The notes: generated by a model from the letters alone, not told the origin. 64,000 nt of DNA from Raillietiella orientalis (GCA_036172245.1 JAYWIR010000004.1:186001-250000), one strand, 5' to 3'; positions 1 to 48,190 are shown, counted from the stretch's first letter. A program made the numbers and translations.

Positions 1-2799
1 AGGGGCCATCGCTTCTCGGATCTTCCCTGTCGACAGGAAGGGGAGGGGAGAGACCCGGTGGACTCCTGCTGCCGCGGCTGGGGAGTGAAAGGAAGGATAG
101 ATGGACAGGGAAAGCGCTTTCGTCTCCCGATCGGAGGGCTTGTCGATCCCCATCCGGCTGAAATGTTCTGAAAGCCCAATGAGGGAGCACAGCGGAGCGG
201 ACGGAGCGCCCGAACCAGAGCTGCCGTCTCTCTCAAGGCCGCCGTCCGTGGGAGAGACGGCAGCTCTGGTTCGTCTCCACCTACTCAGCGGAGGTGGAAA
301 TGGCGCCGTGCTCTTTGACCCCGTTTCTCGACGGTCGCCACCGGCCTTGTGCCAGTCTTCCGGCTTGGTCCGTTCGGCGAATCACCCTCTCGAGGAGGGA
401 GCTCGCGGGATGGGAGAATGCCGACATGTCCAATGTCGGGCCGCCGTGAGCGCACGCCGAAGGACAGCCGCCGGGCGGTCGTCACCCCTCTAGAGGAGCC
501 CCTCGACGAAGACGCAGCTTCTGTGGTCACTCGATCTTCACCTGCCCTCCAGAAGCGGCTTCACCCGCCCGCGGGGGCGTCGCCGAGCTGCCTTCCCCTC
601 TTGACGCCGCGGGGTTCCTCCTCTGCTTCTCCGCTCCGCCGGACGGGCTCTGGGAGCGGCAGGGGCCATCTGCGGCCGCTCCTCCCGCTAGCGGAGTCCA
701 GGAGGAACCCCGCTCTCTCCCACAGCCTCTTGGATGCGGTCGGATTTCAGGAGCGTTCGGGACCCCCCCCCCCCATAGGTCCTCTCGCCCGCCCTTGATC
801 GCGCTCCCTATCGTAGGCGGGTCATCTGGCAGGAACGTCCTCTTTCGCAGACGCGGAGTCTTGCTGGAGGCGCGGCAGGGACGAGGAGGGGCTCAGAGCG
901 TTCGTCTTGGGCTGCCCGCTGACGCGTGGTTGACGTCCTTGGAGGTGGAGGAAGGGGCGGCGGATGGGAGTGGCTGCAGCGACGCGTTCTCCTTCCGAGG
1001 GCGGTTGCTGACTTCTCCCTCACGCGGGTTGGCTGGGAGCAGCGCGGCTCGGATGCTGAGGTCGCCGCCCTGGTAACCAGCTCGCCGCCGCTCCGGAGGG
1101 GGGCTGGGGGTAAGTCGCGAAGGAGAGGCCAACCAACTCGCAAGGGCGGGGCACATCGCCTTGAGGGAGAGTCGGCAGTGCGTAGAACGCCGGCACCGCC
1201 TCGGGCGGGAACCGGAAACTCGAGGACGTTGGGTTTCCCTCCTTCTTACCAGAGGGGAATGCGCGCGCGCGCGTCCTCTGCTGGGCCCGTGGGCGGGGAT
1301 GGCGGCGGCGAGCGTCGATGGCCGTCGTCCGCCGAGGTTCCCTGTTCCATCCCCTCTGGAGATACGGAATGAGTCCCGCGCGGCCTTCGAGGCTCCGGCT
1401 TGCACGAGCGCATAGTTGCCGCGGGGAAAACCCAGCGTCCAGACTCCAGAACGTTCTCTTGGCTGGGATCCGGCCGTCGATGCTGGTTCACTGAAACGGG
1501 TTTGGCGGGCGGTCCCGTCCGGGTCGTCAGGGGCGGAGCTCCTCGAAAGCGAAAGTTTGGCTCCCGGGATGACGCTTCCTCCCCTCTCGCCGGGAGAGCG
1601 TTCCTTCGGTCCTCGGTTGGGTGCTGCTGCGGCCGCTTGTCTCTCTTTGCCTTTCCCGTGATCGCTTTCGCCGCTCCCTACGATTCGGTCGTCTACGTGA
1701 CGATGGCGCGAATTCGCTGCTCCTGTGGGCGCGCGCCTTGGAGCCACCCGTCCGGTGACGACGCAGCTGCGGGAAGCGTTCTGTCCACGAATGCGCCACT
1801 GGCCCACGCGGTGTCACCAGGAGGGGAGTGGGCAGGTGCGAATCGAAGCCCATCGTTTCCTCGCCCCTTGCTCCATCTCCATCTAACGACAGGGCGCAGA
1901 ACGAGGGCGCAGCGTCTCTTTCCCCAACAAGGAGTCGCAGGGCCGCAGCCACACTCCTCTTCCCGATCGCTCCCGGGAGGTGCCAGTGCTAGAGTGCCTT
2001 CACTCGCTCCCGTTTTCCGCGCCTACCTCAGGCTTCCTTCCCCTCCCCTCCGACCTTCCAATCGCGGCCTCGCCTGTTTTGGCTTTCACTTTCTCTTCCC
2101 CTTCGATCGCTCTTCTCTTGGGGTGGAGGGACGGAGGCGATCGGAGCTTCGAGGCCACTTCCCCTTTTCCTCCTCCTGGTCTGGGGCCTCGTCGGGAACT
2201 TTCCGACTGGAGGGAAGGGAAGGGGTGGAAGAGGCGTTCCCAAGGTCCCTGTCTCCCTCCCTCCGCACGGAGAGGGAGAAGCGGGGACGAACAAGAGCGA
2301 AGGGGGAGGAGTAGTAGAGAAATTCCCCACCCTTCTTCTTTTTCCTGGTCTGTCCAGGGGATGGGTGGAGCGGAGTGGTGCCCTCTTCCTACTCCGCGCT
2401 TTCCGAGAAAGTTCGTGGTTCTCTCTACGGAAAATCCCCATTTTCGGCAGAACTTTCCCTGCTTTTCTCCTTCCCCGTGCTCCGGAGGCTCCTCCGATCT
2501 CCTACTTCTACCCCCTTCCCCTTCTCCTTCCTGACGAGCTCCTCTTCCGCCCGGACTCCCTCTGAGGACTGGGGAGGGAGGCGAGTCCAGCACATCGGCC
2601 GCAGCGTGGGTGGAACGCTCTTGGGTTGCGCTTGCGTCTCCATCCTGCCGACTGCCTCTCTTCGCTCGCGAGCTTCCAGCAGAGATGCGTGGTGGGAGGG
2701 GGAGAAGTCGGGAAGAGGGGGGGGGGCCACCTAGGTATATCTCACCCTTCTGAGACTGCAGCAGTCCGAGGTTGCGGTCCGCCTCCGTCTCCATCTCAG

Positions 2800-7420: not shown

Positions 7421-10206
7421 CCCATGACCCCAGCGCCAAGAAGCCTCTGGTGGAGGCCTCGTTTGCTGCGTGCGCGGATCCGCTGCTCTCCTTCCTCCTC
7501 AGGACGTCCCAGCGAAGGCGGGCGGCGTTGCCACCGGCAACCCTCGAAGGTGCTTCTCCATGTGCTCTCTCCCAGCTGCTTCGCTAGGTCTCTTCAGAGG
7601 ACGTCCGCCGACCGTGCAGTCATGCAGTCCCGTCCCTTCCCGTCCTCCCCCATGCCCTACCCTTCCTTCCCCTCCCCCCAATCGCGCGTCCACGCCTCGA
7701 CCTTCCATCTCCTCGGGGATCAGGAATGTGGGGTGGGTGGTCTGCATGGTCCCCAGGTCCAGCTGGAGTCTTCCGGTCCCTCGATCATTCCCTCCCCCAC
7801 CCCTTATCCCCCCTCGCGGAGCACTACCGTGCAGCCTCGTTCGGGAGATTGCGCTTCGGATCCGCATGCTCCCGGGACCCCTCGCTGGTGGGGTGCTGCG
7901 CTCAGGGGTCGCCGATCGGCTTTCCCCCTTCCGGCCCAGGAAAGACCGCTAGCCTCTGCTCTCACGCGTGCGTCCCGGCGAGGGCCGCGCTCGAGAAGGG
8001 TCAGAAGGTCGGGTGCGTTCCACTTGGCATCCCCGTCGCATCAGCTCGTCCCATAGGGGATACCGCCAGCGGGGAAGGGGGGTGAACATGGAGCAGGCTC
8101 TCAGTTCCACCCTAGTTGGGTTTGTCTACCGATGCGATGGTGAGCTATCTGAGGAGCAGGGCCGATGCCCTGCTCCTCAGATGTCGGGACAGGAAATCCT
8201 CGAGGCTCGAGTGTCCTAGGTCCGCCCCTGAAGTCATCAAGGGAGGAGAAGGAGAAAGGCGTTCTCTTCTTCCTTCTCCTCGCTGCTTCACAGACCAGGG
8301 AGATGGGGTCCAAACGACGGAACTGGGGCGAGTCTTCCTCTTGGGAGTGCGGCCGGTCGGCATGGCGATGACCGGAAGAGAAGGAGGCGAGGACGGGCAC
8401 TCTGCTCCCTTGGGCCGAAGGGCGCTCCCGACGTCTGTGGCCTATTCTCGGAGGAGGTGCTGACTGCTTCGTTGATGTATGCTGCATCTTCAAGGAGAAG
8501 AGTCAGGATCTCCCGGGACGCCCCTGCGACCACCATCAGGTCGGATTTCTCCGTCTCCCTCTTTCCCCATCCGGTTCGATGGGACCGTTGCCATGCCTCT
8601 CCGGAGGCGGAGGCTGCGGTCTCGCCGTAGCCTGGCAACGGACGCTGCGATGGGGCGAAACCGTGGAGTGAGGTGTCGGACTGTGGTGACCGGGCACTGT
8701 GGTGGAGGCGCTTCGTCGCCTCTGTTGGCAGTTCCGTCGCTCTCTCCCCTCTTTCCGGAACCCCTGCTCCTCGATCGTCTTCCCCGTCTCTCAATCGTCC
8801 CCGCGTTCCTCTTTTGTTCCTCCTCCTCCTCCTCCCCCCCTTCCTTGGTATCTCTCGCCGCAACGAACCAACGGACTCTCTGGAGGCGGCGGAGGCGATG
8901 ATGACGACGACGGCGGCGGCGACGGCAACAACAACAACAACAAAAGGCGCTCCTGCGTTCGCGCCCGCCCGCGCGCGTCGCCGTCCCCCCTTCGCGTCCA
9001 GGGAACCTTCGGCACTTCTGGCTCGGCAGAACAAGGGCACTTTCTCCATCTGCCAGGCGGTTCAACGGCCTGCCGGACCGTTACGCGCCGAGGCGCGCGC
9101 GCGCGCGCGTCTTTTCCGCGGCGAAATTTCACCTTCGCTCTCTCTCTCCCTCTCTCTCTCTCACCCCCCCTCTTCTTTTTTTGGCGGGAAGAAAGGCAGA
9201 GGAGGAGGGGGAGGGGGAGGGTGCAGCGCCGCCGCCGCCGCCGCACAAGCGAGCGAGCGAGAGCGGCCGTTTGCCCGGACTCTGCCTATCCCTCCGGGGC
9301 GCCTGCGACGCCATCTTGGGATCCCTTTCCCTGCGGATGGGTCGTCCCCCCTTGTAAACGCGGCCGCCGGACGGACGCGCCTCGCTTCTCCGCCTACTCC
9401 TGGCGGCCGTTTCCTCTGCGGCCCCTGACCCCCTCTTCCCCTTCCTTCCTTCCGACTCCTCCGCCCTGGCCTCGGGGCAATTGCGGGGAAGAGGGGAGGG
9501 GGAGGGGGGAGGAGGAGTTGGAGGGAAGGGGAAGGTTGGCCACCCTCTCCTCCTTGCTCCGGTGCGGGTTCGGGCTTTTTCTCCGGAAGCGGCGCCGGCA
9601 GCCGCTTCTTTCCCGGGTCAGCGCACGGGAAGGAAGGGGCGGGCAGGCGGGCGAGAGGGATGGGGAGAGGGGGAGAAGCTCGCGCTTTCATCGTTCTTCC
9701 CGGATGCTCGCTTCCCAGGTGCGCGTCCCGCGCGATCACCCGGAACAGATCGCTCGTGAAGAAAAAAAGGGGGAGGGGGAGGGAAAGCGCAGGCGATGCG
9801 ACAACGAGGACCGAGGTCGCATGCGGCCTCTCGCGCGCTCAAGGGCCACGGGAGGATCCTGACTTCTCGCCCCCCGTTTCTTCCCTCTCTCCCCTAGCCC
9901 CCTCCCTTCGATTCCCTGGAAGTTTCTTCTGCCTCCTCCGCAGTCGGCCTGCCTGACGCTGCCGCACCACGGCAACGGACGAAGGAACCGGGAGGGAACG
10001 GGGACGGGGGAGGAGGAAGCGGGGAGCCAAGAAGGAGAACGTGTTCTTGTGAGGAGACCGGGACGACTGAAAGTGAGCCGGTGCTTTCCAGATCCGTCCA
10101 TAGAGGGTGCGGGCGCTCTCTCGGTCCACCGGCGCGGGCAGGAAGCGAAGCCGCGGACGAGTGAGCAGGAGGAAGAGGTGGAGGAGGAGGAGAGAGGAGG
10201 GAAAAG

Positions 10207-13200
10207 ATGCTGCTGCCTACACTGTCGCTCCCAGACGCCCTGTGCGCCACTCTCCTGCTCGCTGTCCTCCTCCTCTGGGCATCTATCCTGATCCTGCGGT
10301 CTCGCGGAGGCTTGCTTCCTCCAGGGCCGCCCTCTCTACCCGTAGTGGGCTACCTCCCGTTTCTCGACCCCAAGTTTCCTTACAAGACGCTGTCCGAGCT
10401 CGCGGACAAGTATGGCCCCGTGTACGGGGTCCGCCTGGGTGGGGTGTACGCCGTGGTTCTGGCCGATGCTGCGCTGGTGAGGAAGGCCTTCTTCCAGGAG
10501 TCCTTCAACGGGCGCAGCTCACTGCTGCTGACCCACCAGCTGCTGGGAGGCAGAGGTGCGTGCGCAGGAAACGGGACCTAGCAGAGAGAATCCACTCCTC
10601 CTCACAGGTCTCATCTGGTCACAGGGGAACACCTGGAGGCAGCAGAGGAAGATGGCCGTCGACTTCCTGGGTTCCCACACAAAGCCCAGGAGAAGCTTCT
10701 CCGACCGCCTGAAGGACGTGGTTGACGAGGAGGTCGCGGAGTTCCTCCAGGTATGGTCAGAGGATTCCTCTTCTCCACGTCACCCCTCTTGCGAAGGAGG
10801 GGTGCTTTCTGGGGGCTCCTATCTCCCGAGGGCTGTTTTTCCCAGGACCTGGATGCACGCGGGCAGCTCGGCCCCGTGGACGTAGGCGACAGGCTGAAGG
10901 TGCCGCTGTCCAACATCATCTGCCAGATCGTGTTCGGGAGGCGGTTCCCGGAGGACGACCCCTGGGGGAAGAGGCAGCTGTATCTGACGGAGCAGGGGGT
11001 CCGGTACGCGGCTGTCGCGGGAGTCCTCAACTTCTTGCCTTTCCTGAGGTGAGGGCAAGGGAACTGGGAGAGGTCCACGCGACCCGCCGAGAGGAGGCAT
11101 CGCGGGACTGCCCCACGGACCTCTTCCAGGTGGCTGCCCCGCTTCCGTCGCATCTACAACTTTATGAGGAGTGGCATCCGTGAGACTCACGAAGTGTACC
11201 GGAAGCTCATTGGCGAACACAAGGCGGAAGAAGGGATCCAAGACTTCATCGACCACTACCTGTCCCAGATGGGTAGCGGCGGCGGCGAGGGGTGGATGTC
11301 CGTTCCGGACCTCTGCGCTATCCTCGGGGACTTCTTTGGCGCAGGGACGGACACCGTGAAGACCACCCTGTCTTGGCTCTTCCTGTTCGTGGCCCGGAAT
11401 CCGGATGTCCAGGTAGCGCCCTCCCGAGCCTCCTGCGCACGCGGCTGGCGCAGTCCTCGCTTACGTTCTCGGGAGAGAGCGGCTCCTCCACCGTCCACCC
11501 ACATCCCCACTCCTCTCGCCCCGAAACGATTGATCACCAACCTTTGGAATGCGCTCTGAAGCGTGCCTCTTCCCTTCCAGAGACGACTCCAGGAAGAGAT
11601 CGACTCCCAGGTTCCGAGGACGCGCCATCCTGTGCCGGAGGATATGCCTCACCTTCCGTACACGGAGGCTACCATCATGGAAGGCCAGCGCCTTGGCAAC
11701 GTCGTGCCTCTGGGAGCTCCTCACGCGACCATGGAGGTGCAGCCTTATGCCCACATCGCGCGCGCACGTGCGCGCGCCTGCTGGTCTGCGCCCGCGGTGC
11801 TTGCGGGAAGACGGGCAGCGGAAGGAGCAGCTGGCAGGACTCGAAGCGCGAGTGGTACTCCCTGTTGGTCGCGTGGACACGAGGCTGCGAGGGACGGCCA
11901 GTCTCGGAGGGGGGGTTGGAAGAAAGCACCCCCCAAAGGGGCAGCGAGCGCGAGGTGGCGGAGATAGCTCGGCGGCGCAGCCTCCACGGGGTGGGGGTGG
12001 GGACGCGGCGGTGCCCTCACGCTGCGCTAGAGGGGTCTGCCGCCGATACTATGTCTACACGATGCCCGCGGGTGGAAATCCGATCCGATCCACTCGAGAG
12101 GAGTCCGGACGTGCCAGAGAAGTTCTGGACCTCCCGGCGCTCGCTTTCCCACGGTAAGCATCTCGGCCCGAAACGCTTCCGGCAGGACAGCGAGCTCCTT
12201 GGGGTCGCTTTCGCCACCACGCCACCCCGCGCGCGAAAGGATGCTGTTGGGTGCCCCCGCAGTTCCTGCCACTATCCTTGCTGATCCTGGAAACCCGAGA
12301 CGGCGCTGCTTCGGGATAGTAGATGGTCGCCGGCATTGGAATCGGCTTAGGGCCCACCCATTTGTTGCTAATGTTGACCCCACGCTCTCCATCGTGCATT
12401 GGGCTGCGTGTCGCAGGAGATGTACAGTGCTGGAGCAGACGTGCGTGTGTGTGTTGGGGTAGCCCCCCCCACAGGCGGATCCCGTACATGGAGCCGTAGG
12501 TGTCCGCGACCTCGGGCAGGGTCTTGCGGGGACGCTTGGGGTCGAGAAACAGGAAGCAGAGAGAGCGCCTCCGGATGATTGCGACCCTGTGTACGGGTGC
12601 TCCCGGTCCAGAAGAGGAGAGCCGCGAGCGGGATGATGGCGGTGGCGCGTCTGCTGCTGCAGGCGGCGTGTGGCGGGATGTCGAAACCGACGTAGGAAGA
12701 GTTATCATCTGGAAATGGCTCCACCCTGCGAGCTCGGGGAAGTGCAGGGGTTGTCGGAACGTGGCCGCCCGTTCCGCAAGACGACGGAGGCGCTTGCCTG
12801 AGACCGCGGGGAACCTCCGTAAGGGCGAAGCACTTTGTCTGCCGTCTCTCCTGGACGGTAGCGGACATCTTGCCAGCCTCTTGCCTGGACGGTGGAGAGA
12901 ATCCTCGCTGTTTCTGAGCGCGGGAAGCAGGGGGCGGGGGGGGGGGACGGATCAGTTTTTGCCCGGAGGGCGTCAGGGAGCTGCGTTGCCTGTCTGCGCC
13001 GGCGACCGGTTCTTTCGCGCCGGCTGTCGGCTTCGCGAGGCAGGCAGGCAGGTTCCACGCTCCGCAGTGAGGCGGCTACTCGGTGCGCTCCGGCCCCACA
13101 GCGACTTCTCACGGATGGGGGCAGGTTTGCCTCGGGGGGGGGGGGGGGGGGAAGGGGTCTGCATCGCAGGCACCGCCGCTTCCCTCGCGATCCTCCGCAA

Positions 13201-13752
13201 CCCACGGGAAGGGGAACGGGGGGATGCAGAGGTCCGGGCGACTGCTCCCGCGGGAATGTGCGGCGGCGATTGCTCCTTGGGCTTCGGATGATTGAAATTT
13301 TCTTCCATTTCCAGAAGACATCACTGGCGGGCTTCAGCATCCCGGCGAACGCCATGATCATCCCGCTGCTCTGGAAGATCCACATGGACCCATCGACTTG
13401 GCACGACCCGTGGCGGTTCGATCCGACGCGCTTCCTCAGCGAGAAGGGGGAGGTGCAAAAGCCCGACTACTTCCTGCCGTTCAGCACGGGTGAGTTGGGA
13501 GTGCCGCCGCTTCCCGGTCCGAGCGGCCGCGCGGGGAGGATCTGGGAGATCTGCTCTGCCGCAGGGAAGAGGAGGTGCATCGGGGAGAACGTGGCCAGGA
13601 GGAGCATCTTCGTCTTTCTGACGTCGGTGCTGCAGCGGTACATCGTCGCCCTGGAGGATGAGGGCGTCCTGGAACACTCCCCGGAGTATGGGTTCACGCT
13701 GAGCCCACCCGCATACAGGGTGGTGCTGAAGGAGCGAAGCCTTTCCGACTAA
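10207..13752 (+). CDS. phm: Cytochrome P450 CYP306A1 (phantom)-like, ecdysteroid 25-hydroxylase; 7 exons: 10207-10555, 10608-10750, 10846-11048, 11130-11412, 11581-11736, 13315-13489, 13565-13752 (498 aa)
   Basis: All introns are GT..AG and the joined frame is open. Motifs: TM anchor then PPGP hinge; C-helix WRQQR; I-helix GDFFGAGTDTV; K-helix EGQR; PERF-like FDPTRF; heme FSTGKRRCIG. The N-terminal FLDPKFPYKTLSELADKYGPVYG...GRSSLLLTHQLLGGRGLI resembles the phantom pattern (LDPK.P..TL..L...YGP.YG...GRAPLYLTHGIM.G.G), and adjacency to CYP18A1 matches known phm/Cyp18a1 microsynteny. P450 identity is near certain; orthology rests on motifs plus synteny. Confidence 0.85.
12462..12722 (-). pseudogene. 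Degenerate inverted duplicate of phantom exon 1 nested in phantom intron 5
   Basis: The minus strand reads MITLPTSVS.. / ..PHAAC..ATAIIPLAALLFW.. / ..FLDPKRPRKTLPEVADTYGSMYGIRLWGG in shifting frames, versus exon 1 MLLPTLSLPDALCATLLLAVLLLW..FLDPKFPYKTLSELADKYGPVYGVRLGG. The 78-nt core has 14 mismatches by hand count (~82%); frameshifted and truncated. Confidence 0.88.
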
Positions 13753-14098
13753 GGGCGTTTCCGGAGGACGGACTCGCTTCCTGCAGCGGCGTCCTTCCTT
13801 CCCGTCCTTGTCCCGCCGCCGCTCCGTTCGGCGGCGACACCTTGCTGCCAGCGGCATCCGTCCCGGCGCGGGCGCTGCCGAGGTGTCTTCCTGCTCCTCC
13901 TCCGTGCCCCGGAGGCGGGATGTCTGGTCGTTTGGTTGCCGCTGCTGCTCCCGGTCGGCCACAGCAGCCACGGTCCACCCGGAGGCTGCTGCCTCGCGGT
14001 CGCTGGGCGGCGGTCTTCTCTGGTGAAATGCTGTTCCTGCTGTGCAGTCCGGGACCCCCCCCCCCCAAAAAAAAAAAGAAAAAAAAAGAACAAGAAAA

Positions 14099-14104
14099 AA
14101 TAAA
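14099..14104 (+). terminator. Putative polyadenylation signal for phantom
   Basis: First AATAAA seen after the phantom stop, ~350 nt downstream, at the end of an A-rich tract. Confidence 0.4.
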
Positions 14105-14523
14105 GGTGGAAGAGAGGAACTCTGGGCTCACAGCAGGTATGGGTATATGGCGAAGGCGGGCTCTCGGTGAGGAGGGGGGCCTAGCGCGCGCGCGATTTAC
14201 TTTTCTGAGACTTCCCGAAGTGTTCTAGGGAGCCTGCTTAGCTCCTGCTGCAGCGGAACGAAGGGGGGAGTGGCACGTGGGCGCGCGCTCCTTGGTTTTT
14301 GGACGGACTCGCAAACTGCGCCTGCAGCTTCTCCTTCTTCTCTCCCTCCCCTCCTTCTCCCTTCCCGAAATGCCACAGCGGTCTGATGGGCGAAGCGTCC
14401 GGCGGTCCGCCGCCGCGCTACCGAACGACTGCGGGTTCGAACCCCGCTGAAGACACCCAATTCCCCGAACCCCCGCAGCTCCTTCCCCTGAAGCCAGCTG
14501 TTCACCACCTGTCGCTTTAGATG

Positions 14524-14840: not shown

Positions 14841-16529
14841 TCAGAGCAAGATCTCCATGGAGCAGCCCGATGTTCCGTGGAGGTTCTCGATCTGGCTGAT
14901 TCTTTGCACGTCTCTAGGAATGCACTTGACCTACACGCACAGGGAGAGAGGCGTCAGAGGAGCGCAACGGTGCAGGGTCTCTCTGCTCCTCTTCCCCCTC
15001 CCCTCTTTCTCCTCCCGCGGGCGCCCCAACCGCCGCCCCGGCCGGGTTCCCCTCACCTGGAACGGCTGGGGCTTGATCGTCGCCCCGAACTGGGCGTCGG
15101 TGTTGGGGAGCGGGGCGTCCTCGGACGCAGAGACCCGGAACACGTGTAGCAGGGAGCTGAAGAACAGAAAGATCTCCATCCGCGCCAGCGTGTCGCCGAG
15201 GCACATCCTCCTTCCTGGGGAGGAGGAAAGAAACCGCTCGAGCTCGCTCGGAGCTTTGTTGGGTCCGCACCGACCTACTCCGAAGGGCATGAACCACTTG
15301 GGCTTCACTATCTTCCCGTCCTTGGACAGGAACCTCCTGGGCTCGAATTTCTCCGGCTGGTCCCATATGGAGTTGTCCATGTGGACCGCCCAGAGCAGGG
15401 GTACCACGTATGTGTCGGAAGGAAGCCGAAACTCCCCCAGGGAGACCGGCCTGAAAGGTGAGAAAGTTGTATAGGAGAGGTGCGGCATTATCGGGAGCAC
15501 TGACTTGGTCGTCGCGTGCATGGTCCCCAGTCCGACCACGGTGCACCTCCTCATGACCTCCAGGATGGTGGCCTCCGTGAAGGGCAGGTAGGGAAGGTCC
15601 TCAAGAGTGGGCAGGCGCGACCGGCCCACAACCGTGTCCAACTCCTTCTGCACTTCGCTCTGAACGTCAGGGTGCTTCAGGATGAACAGAATGGCCCAGA
15701 GCAGGGTGGTCTTCACGGTCTCCTGACCCGCGGTGAAGAGGTCTCCCATGATCTGGCAGAGTTGCTTTTCTGGAAGCGCGGAGGGACAGGGAAGAAGAGA
15801 ACGCAGCGAGTTTCCGGTAGGGAGGAAAGGGAGGGAGGGGAAGAAACCGAAAGTCATGAAACTCTTGCAGAGGGTGCTTCAGCTCACCAGGGTCCTTTCC
15901 CGAGAAGACTTCGTTCTCCGTCCCGTTTGACTTGGCCGTGTTGATCTCGTTGATGTAGGCGTCCATGAGGTCTCTGATGGAGTTGGGATCGAAGGATTTC
16001 TTGTGCATCAGAACGATCTCCTCGATGAAACCGGCCATCTCGGCTTTGTTCTGGAAAACGGCCGCTGGTCGTCGTCGTCGTCGCTCGGTTCCGGGAAGTC
16101 GGGGGTGGGGGAGGAAGGACCAAAGGAAGAGGAGGGGGAAGGGGAAGTCGCTCACCTTCATCAGCTGGTTGTACGCCTTGTTGACGAAGGGCAGGTACTT
16201 GAAGGCGGGCACGTAGTTGACGATGCTGGCCACAGAGAAGAGCCGGAAGCCTTCGTCGATCAGGTAGAGGAACCTGCGCAGTTGCTTGTTGTCCTCGCGG
16301 AACCTCACGGACATGATGAGAGCGGATATCACGTTGCTGATGCACGTGGAGATGGGGACGCTGAGGTCACAGGGCTTCGATGCCAGCTGCGCTACGCTGC
16401 CCAGGAAGCATTCGATTTCGCTCTGCAATGACCAACGGGGGAGAGAGGGTGGGTGACGGTGAGAACGACTTTCCGAAGGGTGTGGAGTTCTTGTGCGCGC
16501 GCCTTTCCGTCTTCCAGAGAGAGAGGGAA

Positions 16530-16561
<32 letters not shown>

Positions 16562-16575
16562 GGAGAGAGAGGGAA

Positions 16576-16607
<32 letters not shown>

Positions 16608-16609
16608 GG

Positions 16610-16641
<32 letters not shown>

Positions 16642-17666
16642 AGAGGGAGAGAGGGAGAGAGGGAGAGAGAGAGAGGGAGTATCAGAGAACAACAACAACG
16701 GAACAAGCAGACACCACACACACTCGAGAGAAAGCTCAACAGGAGCGGCTATAGCAACACTGCGGATGGAAAATGGGAAGGAAGGGAGCAAAGGGGGGGG
16801 GGGGAGGGAAGGTCTCGCGCGCGCCTGGAAACCGCGGCGAGCTAGCCAACCCCCTCCCCTCATTCTCCTTCCCATCCCGGAAAGGACGAAAAGGAAAAAG
16901 AAGAAGAAAAGGCAAGGAAGCGGCAGCATCACCTACCAGAATTTTCGATTCGATCTTCCCGGCGTACGAAACTCCCAGCTCGCGCAGCCTTAGATGCAAG
17001 AACTTCCTCTGGTCCTTCCAAAGCTTCCCTTCGGAATTGATGATCCCTGCAAAGGAAAAAAAAAGGCCCGTGCAGATTTCAGCCGGAATGATCCACTCCG
17101 CCGCCACCTTCGCCCCGCCTGATTTCGACCCCGGCCTTCCTCCTCCCCCCCGTCCTTCCTTGACCGCGGATGGCGACGAGAGTACCGCGGTCACAGCGGC
17201 CGATCCCGAGACTCCCGGGAAGCTTAAGACCCAGAGTCGACCAATCGAGGAAGAAGAAAACACGCACAGAGAGAAGAAAAAAAAATGCTAAAGACTCACC
17301 GTAACCATCCAGGATCTGTGTGAATCCGGAACTCGGTCGTCCAGAAAACTCTTCTCTCCTGAACGCCTCTCGGATAAGGTCGTGCCTTCCGAGTATCACC
17401 ACCGTCTTGTTGCCGAGGCGGATGCTGAAGAATCCTCCGTACTTCTTGGAGAGGTTCGTGAGCTTCAGATGAATGTCCTTCCTGAGGAACGGCAGGTAGC
17501 CGAGGATGGGCAGTCCATAGGGACCAGGGGGCAGCTTCTCGTTATTTTGGGAGTACATCAGGTACAGTCTAACCAGGAGCACCACCACTGCGAACACCAG
17601 CGCGAGCCTGACGTCGTTGACGGACAGCAGAGGTGCGATTTGCGAGGCGACAGCCGAGATCGCCAT
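14841..17666 (-). CDS. Cyp18a1: Cytochrome P450 CYP18A1-like, ecdysteroid 26-hydroxylase; 8 exons: 17666-17300, 17046-16937, 16422-16156, 16050-15888, 15769-15505, 15450-15275, 15214-15057, 14930-14841 (531 aa)
   Basis: GT..AG introns give an open frame from MAISAVASQ to MEILL*. Motifs: LPPGPYGLPILGYLPF; GYGIINSEGKLWKDQRKFLH; I-helix GDLFTAGQETVKTTLLW; K-helix EVMRR; FEPRRF; heme PFGVGRRMCLGDTLARMEIFLFF, very close to the insect Cyp18a1 signature as I recall it. Confidence 0.92.
16517..16678. repeat. (GA)n microsatellite in CYP18A1 intron 2
   Basis: About 160 bp of nearly pure GA/GGGA/GAAA purine repeat. Confidence 0.95.
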
Positions 17667-17889
17667 ATCACAGCCGAATAAAAAAAATAAAAAAAAATGG
17701 AAAAAAATCAAAAAAAAAAAAAAATGAAAAGGATGCCGATCTTTCACTCGATTTCTATTTGGCAGGAACGCTCGATCCGATCAAGATCGCTAGCAGGGAA
17801 GAGGGACAACTACCACCGTCGAGGGAGTCTGCCTCCGGAGCAGCATGTTACCAAGACACGTGACCGATCGTATTTGGATTAAAGGAGGA

Positions 17890-17924
17890 TTCTGATACCC
17901 ATCTTCTGTCCGAGGTCTTTTATA
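17890..17924 (-). promoter_or_regulatory. CYP18A1 core promoter: TATA box plus initiator, TSS near 17893
   Basis: Minus-strand TATAAAAG at 17924-17917 and Inr-like TCAGAA with its A at 17893, 31 nt downstream (canonical arthropod spacing); about 227 nt upstream of the ATG. Confidence 0.65.
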
Positions 17925-18701
17925 CGAGACTGATAATTATGTTTTTTTGCTTTAAGGGAGGTACCAAGTCAGGTTAACCTTCGCCGTTTCATCAATGACA
18001 GCGTGACGTCACCTGCAGGCCCGACCTATCGATTACTAGATCTTTGATCAATTACGCGAGAAAAACGCGGGGAGATGTGCGGCCGGTTGGCATCGCATTG
18101 TAAAGGTGGATCGACCAATAGAAGGCGTCCGGGAGCGCGCGCGTCGGCCCTGCCCTCCCGCGAAACATTTCCCTTTGGTCATGCGACCACCGTCGCCCGT
18201 GGAGGATGGTGCTGCCTGCCCGACCGCGGCCTGTTCGCCGCGTTCCTGTTAGAAGCGCTCGGCGCTCCTTCGGCGCCGGGCGGCCGCTGCGGGCTGTGCG
18301 CGTGCGCCGAGGGCGGGCGGCGGCCGCGGCAGCGGTACCGTCAGGAGCAGAGAGGGAGCGCGTCAGCAGCGGCGACAAGGAGGCATCGGCGGCGTCGGCG
18401 TCGGCAGCGTCCTTGAAGGCGCCGGTATCCTGTCAACAAAATATGTTACCTAATCAAGTTCTTCTGGCTCGGAGGAAGGGAATAAATCAAAGAGCGCGCC
18501 ACCGTCCTCCGGGGGCGTTCCACCTGCCGAATAAATCAAAGTTCCTCCAAGGTGCGCTTCTGCGCGCACGCGCGCGCTCCGAACGGGTCGCGGGATCGTC
18601 GGGTTTCCCCGAACGTCGGAAGGGGGAGGTGGTGGTCCCGAGGGGGTGCGAGGAGGCGGTCGGTCCCGTGGACGGAGCTGGCGGCCTGGTCGTCTGTCCA
18701 C

Positions 18702-24300: not shown

Positions 24301-27300
24301 TCACGGAGTCCAGTATAGAAAACGAGAAGATTGCAGCAGTGGGACCGCCGAGACCAGCAGATGCATGTCGCTGCTTCCGAAGTGCAGCTGATAGCAGGTG
24401 AAATTAAGAGAATGTATGGTGAAGCGAAATGCCAAAGGTAAGAGGGATCTCCTTCTCTCGTCTCCACTGTGGGCGGGGTTCACTTGGACCGCTGACCAGC
24501 GGACCAGTTATCTGGAGGGGGCACGCAGTTTGCCTCTGTGCCGCGTCTGCTCCCGGACGTCCGCCGTTTCGAGGGCTGGGCATCCGCCCCAAATAGGAGC
24601 CCAGATACCTCCCTCTTTCCTCTTCACTGTGGGCGAGCTTGACGAAAGGATCGTCATCTGAGGACCGGAGATCTTTAGGGAGAACACTGAAGCACCTTCA
24701 CCTTGTGCCCGCCCCAATTCCTCGTCCGGCGCTGGGAGGGAAGGACAGCAACGAAGTTATTTTCCAGCGAAAGGGGGTCTCTGCACCCCAGTCGTTCCCA
24801 TGTTCGGAGATTCCTCTGATCCAAGGAGGCTCCTGACCGAGATGAGGTTCCGTGTCTACGAAACTTTCCGGAAAGGCAAAGAATTTCTTTAGGGGAGTTG
24901 TGAAAGCTTTCCCGCCCCCGCCCCCTTTCTTGTCGCTCACGGAGAGGTGAATTTTGACCGCAGAACACGAACCCCGTGCAGCCTTTGTGGACGGGTTGCT
25001 TCATGGTCTTCGCTCCTCCAACAGAAGTGGTTGGTCTCGTTTCCTCGGGACGTGGTTAGGACGGAGTGGAGAAAAACTCAGCACAGCTAAGAAAACACCC
25101 ACCCACACGCGGCAGGCGCATACAGAAGTAGCTGTTAGAAGGGTACCATGGGGTTGCAGCGTTCATCCTAATCGAGGCACAACACTCCAATTCGCGACCA
25201 TAATTATTATGTATTAATTGCGTGATTAATTCTTGATGGAAAGCACACAGGCGCTGCGACCGGTTTAACAAGAAGGAAACAGGCGGTTGTTGCCGATTTC
25301 CACAGACCCAGATTTCGTGCCACTCCGGTGGAATCCACATTCCCTCTGCTGGCTTCCACCAGCGACTCCAAACAGGCAGCCGGCGCTCCGATCCCTTCCC
25401 GTCTTTCTGGTACCGTGATTTCCAACCGGCCTTTCTCAGCATGGCATGGGCCGCCCTCAATTCGAGGGAAACCCATTCTTGCGTTTGCCCCCCTTTACTC
25501 GTTTGCCGGGGAAGGGGGATCACCATATCACCAACTCCTTCCCTGTCGCTGGTGCCTCGATCCTGGCCTCCTTCGAAGACGACGAAGAGCAAAATGTTTG
25601 GCCTTCCAGCCAGCTTCGCCGCAGGAAAGAACGTGCTGAAAACATCCGAGACGCTGAGCCGTTGGATCCCGTCGAAGATTCTCTTTGCGCGCTCCAGGAC
25701 TGCTCTTCCTTCCGGATCGCCTCCTTTTGGGCGCGGCCTCGACGTACAGCCGCTGCTGGACTCGGCGCCGAAAGAGAGCCGAGAGGCTGGCGCCGGAGTG
25801 ACCTCATCCGGGGGTCGATTCCAGACCGGAAGCGCCGCCGTCGTCGGTTGTTTCCGCTACGGCGCGCGTGTCGCCCTCGTCTGCTTCTTCCGTTCCAGAC
25901 CAGCTTCTCGCTCAGAGCTCTGCCCGCATCACTGAATCGGATCCAAGTCCAGAACCGCCCCACCGGGGATTGGATGAAGCATGGGAGGGGGAGGAAGCGC
26001 CTTCCGGATGGATCCTTGCCTCCCTTCCCGTGCTCTGAAGTCGGTCGGTAGCGTTTCCCGGTCTCCAGGGGACCATCCTAAGGCTCCCACTAACCTCTCC
26101 TGAAAGAAGCAACCTTGAAGGCAGGAACGCTTGGTCGGCGGATGTCTCTCGGAGTCGCCGCCCTCCGCGCCCCCAGGAGGTCCCATTGTGCCTTTCGGGT
26201 TTCGGCTCACCGACTCCGCCCCGTATTCTTCGAGGCAGGGGAGCAGGAGGCGTTCCGCGGAATCCTCATGTTCCCGCCGCCGCCCGCGGAAGGATTCCTG
26301 ACGTGCACGCGCGTCTTTCCGGCCACTCAGGGGTCACCCGCCTTTCCTTTGTTTACAGCAGGACGCGATGCCCGTCCTCCGCAGCCTCCCTCCCGGCCAC
26401 GAAACAGTGTAAGACGCGATTAGAATGGAGAGGTCCTCTTGCAGCGCCTCGCCTACTCCGTCTGCTGTCCGCACCGCTTCTGAAGGGACTTTCTTCGTGG
26501 CCCGCTCCAGGAGGGTCGCTCTGCGAGGAGGCAGCGCATGGTTGGCGGAGGTCGATCAGACGGGAATTCGCCTCCTCCACGAAGGGTTTCTTCCCCGGAA
26601 AAGTCCGTCGAGCGGGACGATGCTGGAGGGGACACGCATTTTTCCGCTATGCTGAGCCTGCTCCTGGACGCCTGTCTTTTCGAGGGCGGAGCATCCGCGC
26701 CAAGTAGGGGCCGAGATATCTCCCTCTTTCCTTCCACTGCGGGAGAGGCTCGCGGGAACCGCTGACCACTTGACAGGCTGACGTCTCGCTCCGGCAGGGA
26801 TGCTCCAACGGGCAAAGAGGCTGTGGAGCCACTCGTGCAGGCGGCGCCGTCCGTCCGGAGCGCGGCAATCGGAGGGAGGGGCGATTCGCCGCTTGGCCGG
26901 ATCGGCACCGCGACGCCTCCGTACCGCTGAGAGGACGCTCCCGTGGAGGTAGCACGAGAGCGGGCCGCCTGCACGCCGGGTGACCGTTTCCTGGAGTCAC
27001 GTAGGGGGGGGGGGGGATACGACAGCTTCCTGAACGCTCTCTCGCCGGGGACCTCAAGCGGTCCCATCCAGATGGATGACAGGCGCGTGTCGGTCGACCG
27101 ATCCCGGGAGGTCGCTCCTGAGAGCTGCTTCTGGCTGCAGAAGGGAGGCGAGGAAGGAGGAAGGCGCGCAAGGCCCGTGGGGCGTCCCAGTCGAGAGAGG
27201 CACGCCGCGCGGCCTTTCGCCTATGCCCGCCCGCGGCCGCCACCACCGTTAGACTTCCTGTCCGAGACGGACAAACAAGCCAGTGAGTTCGTAAAAAAAA

Positions 27301-43200: not shown

Positions 43201-43749
43201 CGAGGACCTATCGTTGCTTCTGTTTTAGTTGCTTCCCCCTCGGCTGACGACCCAAGAGATGCGTCCCCCCTGCGTCGCGTGTCGGGACGGACCAACATAC
43301 ACATCGTGAGGTATCTAAACGCTCTCGAGGAGGATCCCGAGATGCCTGGGGCTCCTCGGATCCCAGAACCCCAGGAAACCTGCCTCCTGCTTCCTCGGAC
43401 CGATGCCTGTGACCTCAGGGGCAAGTCAGGAAGAGCACCGGTTCACTGTCTCGACTCTCCTCTCGGGAATAGTCAAAGAACAGCTCCGATCGTTAGAACG
43501 TTGAACTGTCGGCTCTGCCTATTGCATGGAATGTAGCTCATCTCGAGAGTTGCATGCCATTTTCCTGGATATCTTTATCTGTTGCGGGATCCTTGCTCAC
43601 GTTCTTTCACCAGGAAGCTCCACATCTTTTGTCTGTTACAACGCATGATCTGAGAAGACGTACAGGAGGTCTTGATATGCTTTAAATAGATATCAGGAAG
43701 CAGAAACATTTTAAAAATAGAACAAGGAACTTGACAGAATTAGGATGGA

Positions 43750-44690
43750 CAACTCGGAAAGGTTGACAGCAGCCACCCTGGTTACGGTGTTCTTACGCAG
43801 CTGTAGCCAACCTAAAGAACAGGGAACTGCGTTCTTCTCGCATGTCCTTCTTCAGTTCCAAGCCACTAAAAAGTTCAGATTTCTGTGTCACCACAAGAAC
43901 CCACTGGGTGTTTTCGACGGGTGAAGGAAGAGTTGAAAAGTTGCTTCGGAAGAAGAGTTTCTTTGAGATCTCCGCGTAAGATTTCACGAGTGATGAGAGC
44001 AAAGAGGGTCGTCGGAAGACCCGAAACAGGACGGATTCTTGCAGCATGTTTTGTCGTCTGATGTGGATCGATGGAACTGGATAAAGTGCTCTGGCTCTGT
44101 CGCTGTCCAATGCAGAGATCCATCCTGCAGTTCACTTTCTCTCTCCATTTGCATCAGCCGATAGAGCTCAGAAAAGATGAAGAAAATTCGTGATACAGTG
44201 CTAAGGAAGAAAAGGGTGCTTCAATGTGCTCAGTATGCCAAAGAGATGAGTGAGCGTCGGACACTGGGATTCTTTTTTTCAGGAGAAAAAGGCCAACTTC
44301 AGCAGAAGGCTGGCTAGGCTTCCAGATTTGAAAGAGACTGTGGAACTCCTCTTTACCTGTCTTCCGTTCTCTTGACGAATGCCTCCCGTGAGCACCCTCG
44401 GGTTTCTTGCGACGGGAAACGGAGGCGTGTTTTTCTAAGCAGAGGAAAAGCGTCATGAGCGTAAGGAGCACGATGGTTTCGCCGCAGAGGTGAGGCAGCT
44501 CCGCGGTCGCCGTGCTTGGGGTTGCGGGTCTTTTCCTGGAGATGCTGGGAAGCATATGCCGCACGGCACTGATCGTTTCCGTTCACTCGGATTTTCCTCC
44601 CGAGATGCTTCCCTTGGATTTCGACCGCTTCGAGATCGACTGCCATGACCGTTGAGGACCCTTTCAAGGAATAAGTTGCCGGTCTAGAGT
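43750..44690 (-). mobile_element. Decayed hAT (Buster/Charlie-like) transposase C-terminus
   Basis: CRAAYASQHL (~LAYLxDIF), TEHIEA, ALDSDR; SSLVKSYAEISKKLFF..FST..VEN..VLVV..LELKKDMR matches the Buster dimerisation region (YPxLSKKA..PFSTTYxCExGFS..LxxExDMR). Confidence 0.5.
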
Positions 44691-44839
44691 CCTCTGAAGT
44701 CTGATGATGCCCGTCGGCCTTTCGCCCGCCTTCCGGTTTGCAGACTAGGCATTACTCTCACCTCTTGTCTCGTCCACGAAGATCCACATCCCTTTTTTCA
44801 GGAGATGAAGGTCAGGGGGTGCGCAAATCTCAGCAGGGT

Positions 44840-45080
44840 GCGCAAATCTCCTAGAGAAGCGCGAGGGAGTTGGTCGGAAGAAGAGAGACGCGCAGAACGA
44901 ATGCGCATCGCACCTGCGCTTGAGTAAAGGGCTCAGGACCCGCGCGGACGCCGTTGCCGTGCGGAACCAGCCGTTGCTGAGGCGGTTCAAAAGTTGATGC
45001 GATGCCCGGAAGCGGAAGTATCGAAGCCGGACTCAGAAGGACGGACGGAGGGTGCTAAATATAGCAAAATAAGTAAACAG
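44840..45080. repeat. Dispersed repeat, copy 1 (possibly a Helentron-associated/DINE-like non-autonomous element end)
   Basis: Core 44950-45080 matches 48059-48190 with 6 substitutions and 1 indel. The minus strand has TTTAGCAC..TCCGTCCGTCC..AACTTTTGAACCG, reminiscent of HINE/DINE-type elements; the family call is tentative. Confidence 0.8.
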
Positions 45081-47931: not shown

Positions 47932-48190
47932 GCGCGAATCTCCCAAGGCAGTCTGTCGGAAGAAGAGAAGCACGCAGACAGACCAGGAAGTGGCGCCCTT
48001 CCGACGTCACCACGAATGCGCATCGAGCTTGAGAGGAGCATTCAGGATCAGCGCGGATGCCGTTGCCGTGGGGAACCAGCCGTTGCTGAGGCGGTTCAAA
48101 AGTTGATGAGATGCCCGGAAGCGGAAGTATCGGAGCCGGACGCAGAAGGACGGACGGAGCGTGCTAAATATAGCAAAAATAAGTAAGCAG
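47932..48190. repeat. Dispersed repeat, copy 2
   Basis: Direct repeat of 44840-45080, about 3.1 kb away. Confidence 0.8.

Follow-up and report, generated by a model that had tools for sequence, protein, structure and literature searches.

Imperfect duplexes between an exon and an intron are used by ADAR, and in the example described the editing complementary sequence (ECS) lies in the 5' proximal part of the adjoining intron (PMC7939439). Adenosine-to-inosine (A-to-I) sites have been described in several genes of the aphid ecdysteroid pathway, CYP306A1 among them (PMC11968105). The hairpin RNA (hpRNA) loci of Drosophila, which give endogenous small interfering RNAs (siRNAs), are described as having been born by inverted duplication of their target genes (PMC10317233), and long-range pre-mRNA structures, such as the docking and selector sequences of Dscam1, those of Ate1 and conserved complementary regions, are described as regulating splicing, some of them being proposed to be duplication-born (PMC8052449, PMC7797038, PMC12962786, PMC6071210). 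Here we analyse an inverted copy of part of exon 1 that lies within intron 5 of a phantom (CYP306A1)-like cytochrome P450 gene, in a stretch of 64,000 nucleotides (nt) of Raillietiella orientalis DNA (JAYWIR010000004.1:186001-250000; hereafter the window). An initial annotation had proposed that this copy pairs with exon 1 as a switch on a moulting-hormone gene or, alternatively, that it is the fossil of an inverted duplication. We favour the latter: the copy is probably, with a confidence of about 0.72, a neutral and decaying non-coding remnant of an inverted duplication that was small and local. In the open-access literature that we searched, nothing was found on an inverted exon copy in phantom.

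We confirmed that intron 5 holds an antisense copy of the exon-1 block encoding FLDPK..YG..YG.RL. The two arms (Table 1) are 80% complementary and 2020 nt apart, and they form the longest of the 54 inverted pairs that a repeat search returned for positions 9500-14500. By blastn against the whole window, the copy was recovered at 81.1% identity over 90 nt with an expectation value (E) of 4.7e-19 (1.25e-18 with the intron as query, and 5e-17 when the window was compared all-against-all). On the minus strand the core block reads CFLFLDPKRPRKTLPEVADTYGSMYGIRLWG where exon 1 reads YLPFLDPKFPYKTLSELADKYGPVYGVRLGG; the copy translates there as FLDPKRPRKTLPEVADTYGSMYGIRL, against FLDPKFPYKTLSELADKYGPVYGVRL in exon 1. 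An anchor-like stretch on the same strand, AIIPLAALLFW, sits in a different frame from the core block, so that the copy is frameshifted, as had been claimed. An identity of 80% also indicates that the copy is old and not an artefact of assembly. At its end the copy runs into eight consecutive C on the plus strand (12466-12473), facing GGGTGGGG in the exon, which would place a breakpoint of the duplication within a homopolymer-like stretch.

The differences between the two arms bear no mark of selection on a protein. The 19 substitutions in the core comprise 12 transitions and 7 transversions (Kimura two-parameter distance 0.24); by codon position they are spread 9/5/5, and they alter 12 codons nonsynonymously against 3 synonymously. 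Residues common to both CYP306a1 rows of our alignment, namely the L of SELAD and the first G of RLGG, are substituted in the copy. Neither of 2 minus-strand translations of the copy matched Pfam, and among the 11 open reading frames (ORFs) of at least 110 amino acids (aa) that overlap the intron, the only Pfam matches were to read-through from exon 5, with no transposase or other domain. Because of the frameshift, the lack of a Pfam match and the unconstrained codon changes, the copy is, to judge from its sequence, non-coding. The absence of protein constraint suggested at the outset is thereby upheld, and an origin as the fossil of an inverted duplication agrees with every test that was run (codon changes, frameshift and Pfam).

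How far the copy extends beyond the core is less secure. The initial annotation had placed it at 12462..12722, so as to take in the transmembrane-anchor codons, an ATG, and a GAGCC..TTTCCAGAT motif shared with the DNA upstream of the true start. The core of this interval is real, but its upstream end, with the ATG and the motif, lies within chance. A collinear 34-nt block is indeed seen for the anchor codons (10245-10278 against 12641-12608); its score of 31 was reached by 0 of 500 shuffles yet by 17 of 504 genomic control segments. Because of these controls the block is not secure, and we regard its membership of the copy as plausible but borderline, with its collinear position adding some weight. 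The spacer between the two blocks and its exon counterpart gave no alignment above chance (444 of 1000 shuffles reached the global score), and the codons of the PPGP hinge are absent from the copy. Upstream of the anchor codons, the motif reduces to a shared 9-mer, TTTCCAGAT, at a score which 334 of 406 genomic controls reach, and the ATG at 12704-12706 does not occupy the position homologous to the true start. TTTCCAG is also the type of 3' splice site found in introns 2-5 of the phantom-like gene. A direct match between 10403-10428 and 12572-12597 (73% over 26 nt) was judged to be chance, as were the other two-copy short families listed.

By blastn, intron 5 contains no other exon fragment, and the rest of it resembles neither the gene nor other DNA of the window, two internal palindromes aside. 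One palindrome is a perfect 20-nt G+C sequence centred on ACGT, 21 nt into the intron (11758-11777); the other is imperfect, spanning 79 nt with 71% self-complementarity (12128-12206). Long G runs occur in the intron at 12930-12953 and 13136-13159, and a C run occurs in the 3' flank of the gene at 14048-14066.

We propose that a piece of exon 1 was copied backwards into intron 5, certainly over about 95 nt and perhaps over about 200 nt with internal loss, and that this may have happened through a template switch during replication or a similar event at the level of DNA. The copy would then have drifted without constraint, adding to the unusual length of intron 5. The surrounding DNA is consistent with such an origin. 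An all-against-all comparison of the window gave six non-self repeat pairs at E < 1e-8, among which the phantom pair ranks fourth in strength; in all six the partner lies within 3.2 kb and identity is 80-89%. Since there are five other short repeats of similar divergence, local duplication seems to be a background process here, and this DNA seems generally prone to mutation by small local duplication in either orientation. The phantom copy is, in size, distance and apparent age, a fitting member of that class. Pfam gave no match for any of 41 ORFs around the five other local repeats.

As the two arms belong to a single primary transcript, an imperfect exon 1/intron 5 duplex of about 86 bp (10355-10452 with 12456-12554) could in principle form in the pre-mRNA; under the relic reading it would be a by-product devoid of a regulatory role. 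When the arms alone were cofolded, the predicted energy was -166.4 kcal/mol with 86 pairs (53 G-C, 26 A-U and 7 G-U), and the net gain over self-folding was -89.9 kcal/mol, compared with -12.5 +/- 4.6 kcal/mol (minimum -29.0) for 200 dinucleotide shuffles of the intron arm (z about -17). A stable duplex, whose absence had been named beforehand as telling against the proposed switch, is thus predicted. The full-length 349 x 261 nt prediction inflated energies throughout (-289 against -208 for shuffles), and the arm-only cofold was used instead. All 86 pairs were retained in the minimum-energy folds of both the unspliced 10100-12800 transcript (2701 nt) and the transcript lacking introns 1-4 (2904 nt).

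It may be that this duplex is a working element of double-stranded RNA (dsRNA), in which an ECS-like arm would direct A-to-I editing of codons 49-79, or in which slowed release or splicing would tune phantom output. The predicted fold fits this explanation, as does the ungapped state of the 95-nt core beside a flank that is no longer so, and precedents exist in the imperfect exon-intron duplexes on which ADAR acts (PMC7939439) and in the A-to-I editing reported in aphid CYP306A1 (PMC11968105). We nonetheless consider it unlikely, as a comparable fold is expected from every inverted repeat of such size. The intron arm lies five introns and 2020 nt downstream, whereas the editing complement in the example of PMC7939439 belongs to the neighbouring intron. 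The duplex stops 103 nt short of the exon-1 donor, and each end of intron 5 is over 700 nt away from it, so that no splice site is overlapped or masked, and the longest exact complementarity between the arms is 16 nt, so that no perfect 21-mer against phantom mRNA could be obtained. Selection for pairing would be expected to drive transitions toward states that allow G:U pairing on the sense RNA; of the 12 transitions, 7 are of this kind (binomial p 0.39), which is no enrichment, although the test is a weak one. Rfam gave no match at gathering thresholds for the whole window, nor any at E up to 1 for 11600-13400, and no tRNA genes were found. Of the self-pairing switch first suggested, the predicted duplex therefore stands, while overlap with a splice site, a perfect 21-mer and an excess of pair-preserving changes do not. 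Editing by ADAR is the only route that such a duplex would obviously allow. A variant in which the relic was later co-opted as a very distant, duplication-born ECS, whether ADAR then recoded or marked the N-terminal FLDPK..YG..RL or nuclear dsRNA delayed release and so acted as an ecdysteroid brake, seems to us quite unlikely. Apart from the long duplex, the 11 nt at 12708-12718 (plus strand) are exactly complementary to the acceptor of intron 5 itself at 13305-13315 (CCATTTCCAGA; region noted as 12705-12718 / 13305-13318), and the minimum-energy fold predicted for the partly spliced transcript joins the two. This 11-mer was matched by 0 of 500 shuffles; yet an 11-nt complement exists somewhere in the pre-mRNA for 2 of the gene's 12 splice-site windows, and the match may therefore be chance. 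It would, however, be a more direct candidate for an effect on splicing than the long duplex.

The remaining explanations concern where the copy came from or what it carries. A fragment of a lost or unlinked CYP306-like paralogue, or one captured and carried in by a mobile element, would suit an intron whose remaining sequence has no detectable source and a copy that is short, with an unalignable spacer. Such an origin is improbable, in that the nearest DNA match in the 64 kb is the gene's own exon 1 (81%), whereas with exon 1 of the neighbouring CYP18A1-like gene the match is limited to an 18-nt word; the pairs listed for 9500-14500 include no terminal inverted repeats on either side of the copy, intron 5 encodes neither a transposase nor another Pfam domain, and the short distances between the other repeats of the window and their partners fit local copying. 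The copy does represent the 5' end of the gene in reverse, and a stop-free frame of 298 codons spans it (12055-12951, minus strand), so that a duplicated promoter or 5' untranslated region might drive antisense RNA back through exons 5-1 of phantom. We regard this as very unlikely: since homology upstream of the anchor codons does not exceed chance, no promoter copy is detectable, and the 298-codon frame has no Pfam match and is of a kind common in GC-rich DNA (by eye, more than 20 of the 286 frames of at least 110 aa in the window reach 298 codons). Chance resemblance or an assembly artefact, finally, is extremely unlikely. GC-rich, low-complexity DNA does lift background scores, which apart from the general possibility is all that speaks for it, but E is 5e-19, and an identity of 80% and not of about 100% disfavours a chimeric join. 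One independent sequencing run, apparently of DNA, was listed as containing a 0.05 share of the sequence words. In it, a 237-nt contig was identical to 11549-11785, which lies outside both arms; a second match, of 39 nt and with 7 differences, fell within a 2082-nt contig that is otherwise unrelated.

Some observations nevertheless weigh against a neutral relic. The predicted duplex is strong relative to shuffles and is kept in the unspliced and partly spliced folds; if the transcript folds as predicted, the pre-mRNA would contain nuclear dsRNA, the form of substrate on which ADAR acts, and the aphid A-to-I sites described in ecdysteroid genes include CYP306A1 (PMC11968105). Identity is also uneven, with 80% over 95 ungapped nt beside a spacer that cannot be aligned, so that additional indels or a composite origin are needed, which uniform neutral decay would not predict. 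Our view that the copy has no function is in turn inferred from sequence and predicted folds.

The host gene is probably phantom, CYP306A1 being characterized by steroid 25-hydroxylase activity in the making of ecdysteroids. The spliced model has a coding sequence of 1497 nt with GT..AG boundaries at 6 of 6 introns, which measure 52, 95, 81, 168, 1578 and 75 nt; this bears out the initial statement that intron 5, at 1578 bp against 52-168 bp for the others, is exceptional. At the exon 5/6 junction no residues are missing relative to a named CYP306a1 protein, with 8 residues between PH. and GF.IP in both. The Pfam p450 family (PF00067) was matched by all 4 exon translations tried (E 6.6e-11 to 1.2e-17) and by exon 5 too, and the heme-binding F..G.R.C.G loop of P450s is present as PFSTGKRRCIGE. 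The phantom label itself is suggested by the exon-1 match, blastp, the N-terminal pattern, and the CYP18A1-like neighbour together with published synteny. A protein search with exon 1 gave a single match among 3398 candidates, Plodia CYP306a1, at 59% identity over 69% of the query. Against 20 fetched proteins, the spliced model had its best blastp score with Anopheles cruzii CYP306a1 (38.6%, 338 bits); CYP18a1 proteins followed at 296 bits and Plodia CYP306a1 at 287 bits. The N-terminal block contains an ungapped FLDP..P plus YG.(I/V)YG...YAVV pattern that is common to both CYP306a1 rows of the alignment and occurs in none of the four CYP18-type rows. The 13-row tree gives no proof, as it places the gene neither with the CYP306a1 nor with the CYP18a1 clade. 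No homologue passed among 98 candidates for exon 4, and the protein atlas returned only generic P450 clusters, with no subfamily, for exon 1. A metagenome scan with exon 1 yielded 591 pattern matches, 2 of which encode relatives (31-33% identity, on short contigs) too distant to inform on conservation.

Table 1. Features of the phantom-like locus and other local repeats, in window coordinates.
Feature	Position	Strand	Remarks
CYP306A1 (phantom)-like microsomal P450 gene	10207..13752	+	probably phantom; 7 exons, 498 aa; spliced open frame, GT..AG introns, Pfam p450
Exons of the phantom-like gene	10207-10555, 10608-10750, 10846-11048, 11130-11412, 11581-11736, 13315-13489, 13565-13752	+	
Intron 5	11737..13314	+	1578 nt; the gene's sole long intron
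Exon-1 arm of the inverted repeat	10350..10444	+	codons for YLPFLDPKFPYKTLSELADKYGPVYGVRLGG
Core of the inverted pseudo-copy	12465..12559	-	95 nt ungapped, 19 differences
Spacer between blocks	12560..12607	-	48 nt, where the exon has 71 nt; does not align
Possible second collinear block (membrane-anchor codons 10245-10278, other reading frame)	12608..12641	-	28/35 columns
ATG and GAGCC..TTTCCAGAT motif of the initial annotation	12698..12722	-	homology to 10075-10093 unsupported
CYP18A1-like P450 gene	15054-17666	-	clusters with three named CYP18a1, support 97/98
Direct repeat	48012-48190 / 44897-45080		185 nt, 87.6%
Inverted repeat	44650-44801 / 42992-42840		
Direct repeat	26623-26747 / 24512-24637		
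Inverted repeat	43398-43464 / 42837-42771		
Palindrome	211-273		63 nt

The CYP18A1-like gene, which has 55% identity to a damselfly CYP18a1, lies 1.3 kb beyond the stop codon of the phantom-like gene, the two being arranged tail to tail. CYP306A1 and CYP18A1 are described, in a review of cat flea P450s, as products of an ancient duplication that have retained close synteny; they set the ecdysteroid titre in opposing ways, and both have been retained as linked single-copy genes (PMC9387431). Judging by identity and arrangement, the two genes here are this conserved pair. The CYP18A1-like gene contains a (GA)n microsatellite of about 164 nt (16516-16679), which is presumably intronic. The G+C content is 47-48% at 17450-18050, which covers the 5' end of that gene and the DNA upstream of it, compared with 60-72% for the phantom-like gene and its flanks.

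As a fossil, the copy matters little in itself. It shows that short stretches of this GC-rich arthropod genome are often duplicated locally, in direct or in inverted orientation, and it accounts in part for the tenfold length of intron 5 relative to the other introns of a compact gene. If the duplex were used, however, phantom would carry its own dsRNA brake or editing guide, and this would constitute a new layer of moult-hormone control, as well as a clear case of a duplication creating an editing complement.

Like the ECS of the ADAR substrates described, the copy is intronic and complementary to a coding exon of its own pre-mRNA, with which it is predicted to form an imperfect duplex. It differs from the example in the adjoining intron by its distance (2020 nt and five introns downstream), by its size of about 86 bp and by its derivation from a duplication. 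With structures of the Dscam1 and Ate1 type it shares complementary regions kilobases apart in one pre-mRNA, but the pairs described in those systems are conserved across species and lie around, or hide, splice sites or exons under regulation, whereas the phantom duplex leaves every splice site uncovered and the gene has no evident alternative exon. The copy also resembles an hpRNA locus in being an inverted duplicate able to form dsRNA homologous to a parent gene. In hpRNAs, the stems are near-perfect and yield 21-nt siRNAs. They are, moreover, separate loci with both arms in one hairpin, while here one arm is a functional exon and the loop of 2 kb holds four exons; with 80% identity and a longest exact run of 16 nt, the near-perfect stem of an hpRNA is lacking.

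Processed pseudogenes are recognized by sequence that spans exon-exon junctions, a 3' bias and a poly(A) remnant. These features are lacking in this copy, which is confined to sequence internal to exon 1, in the gene's 5' part; downstream of it, on its own strand, come a G run and a (CA) repeat in place of poly(A). The closest likeness is to the gene-fragment relics, or pseudo-exons, of small segmental duplications, which are likewise partial, frameshifted, unconstrained and near their source. The phantom relic is distinguished from these by being inverted within the transcription unit of its own source, and nothing essential differs.

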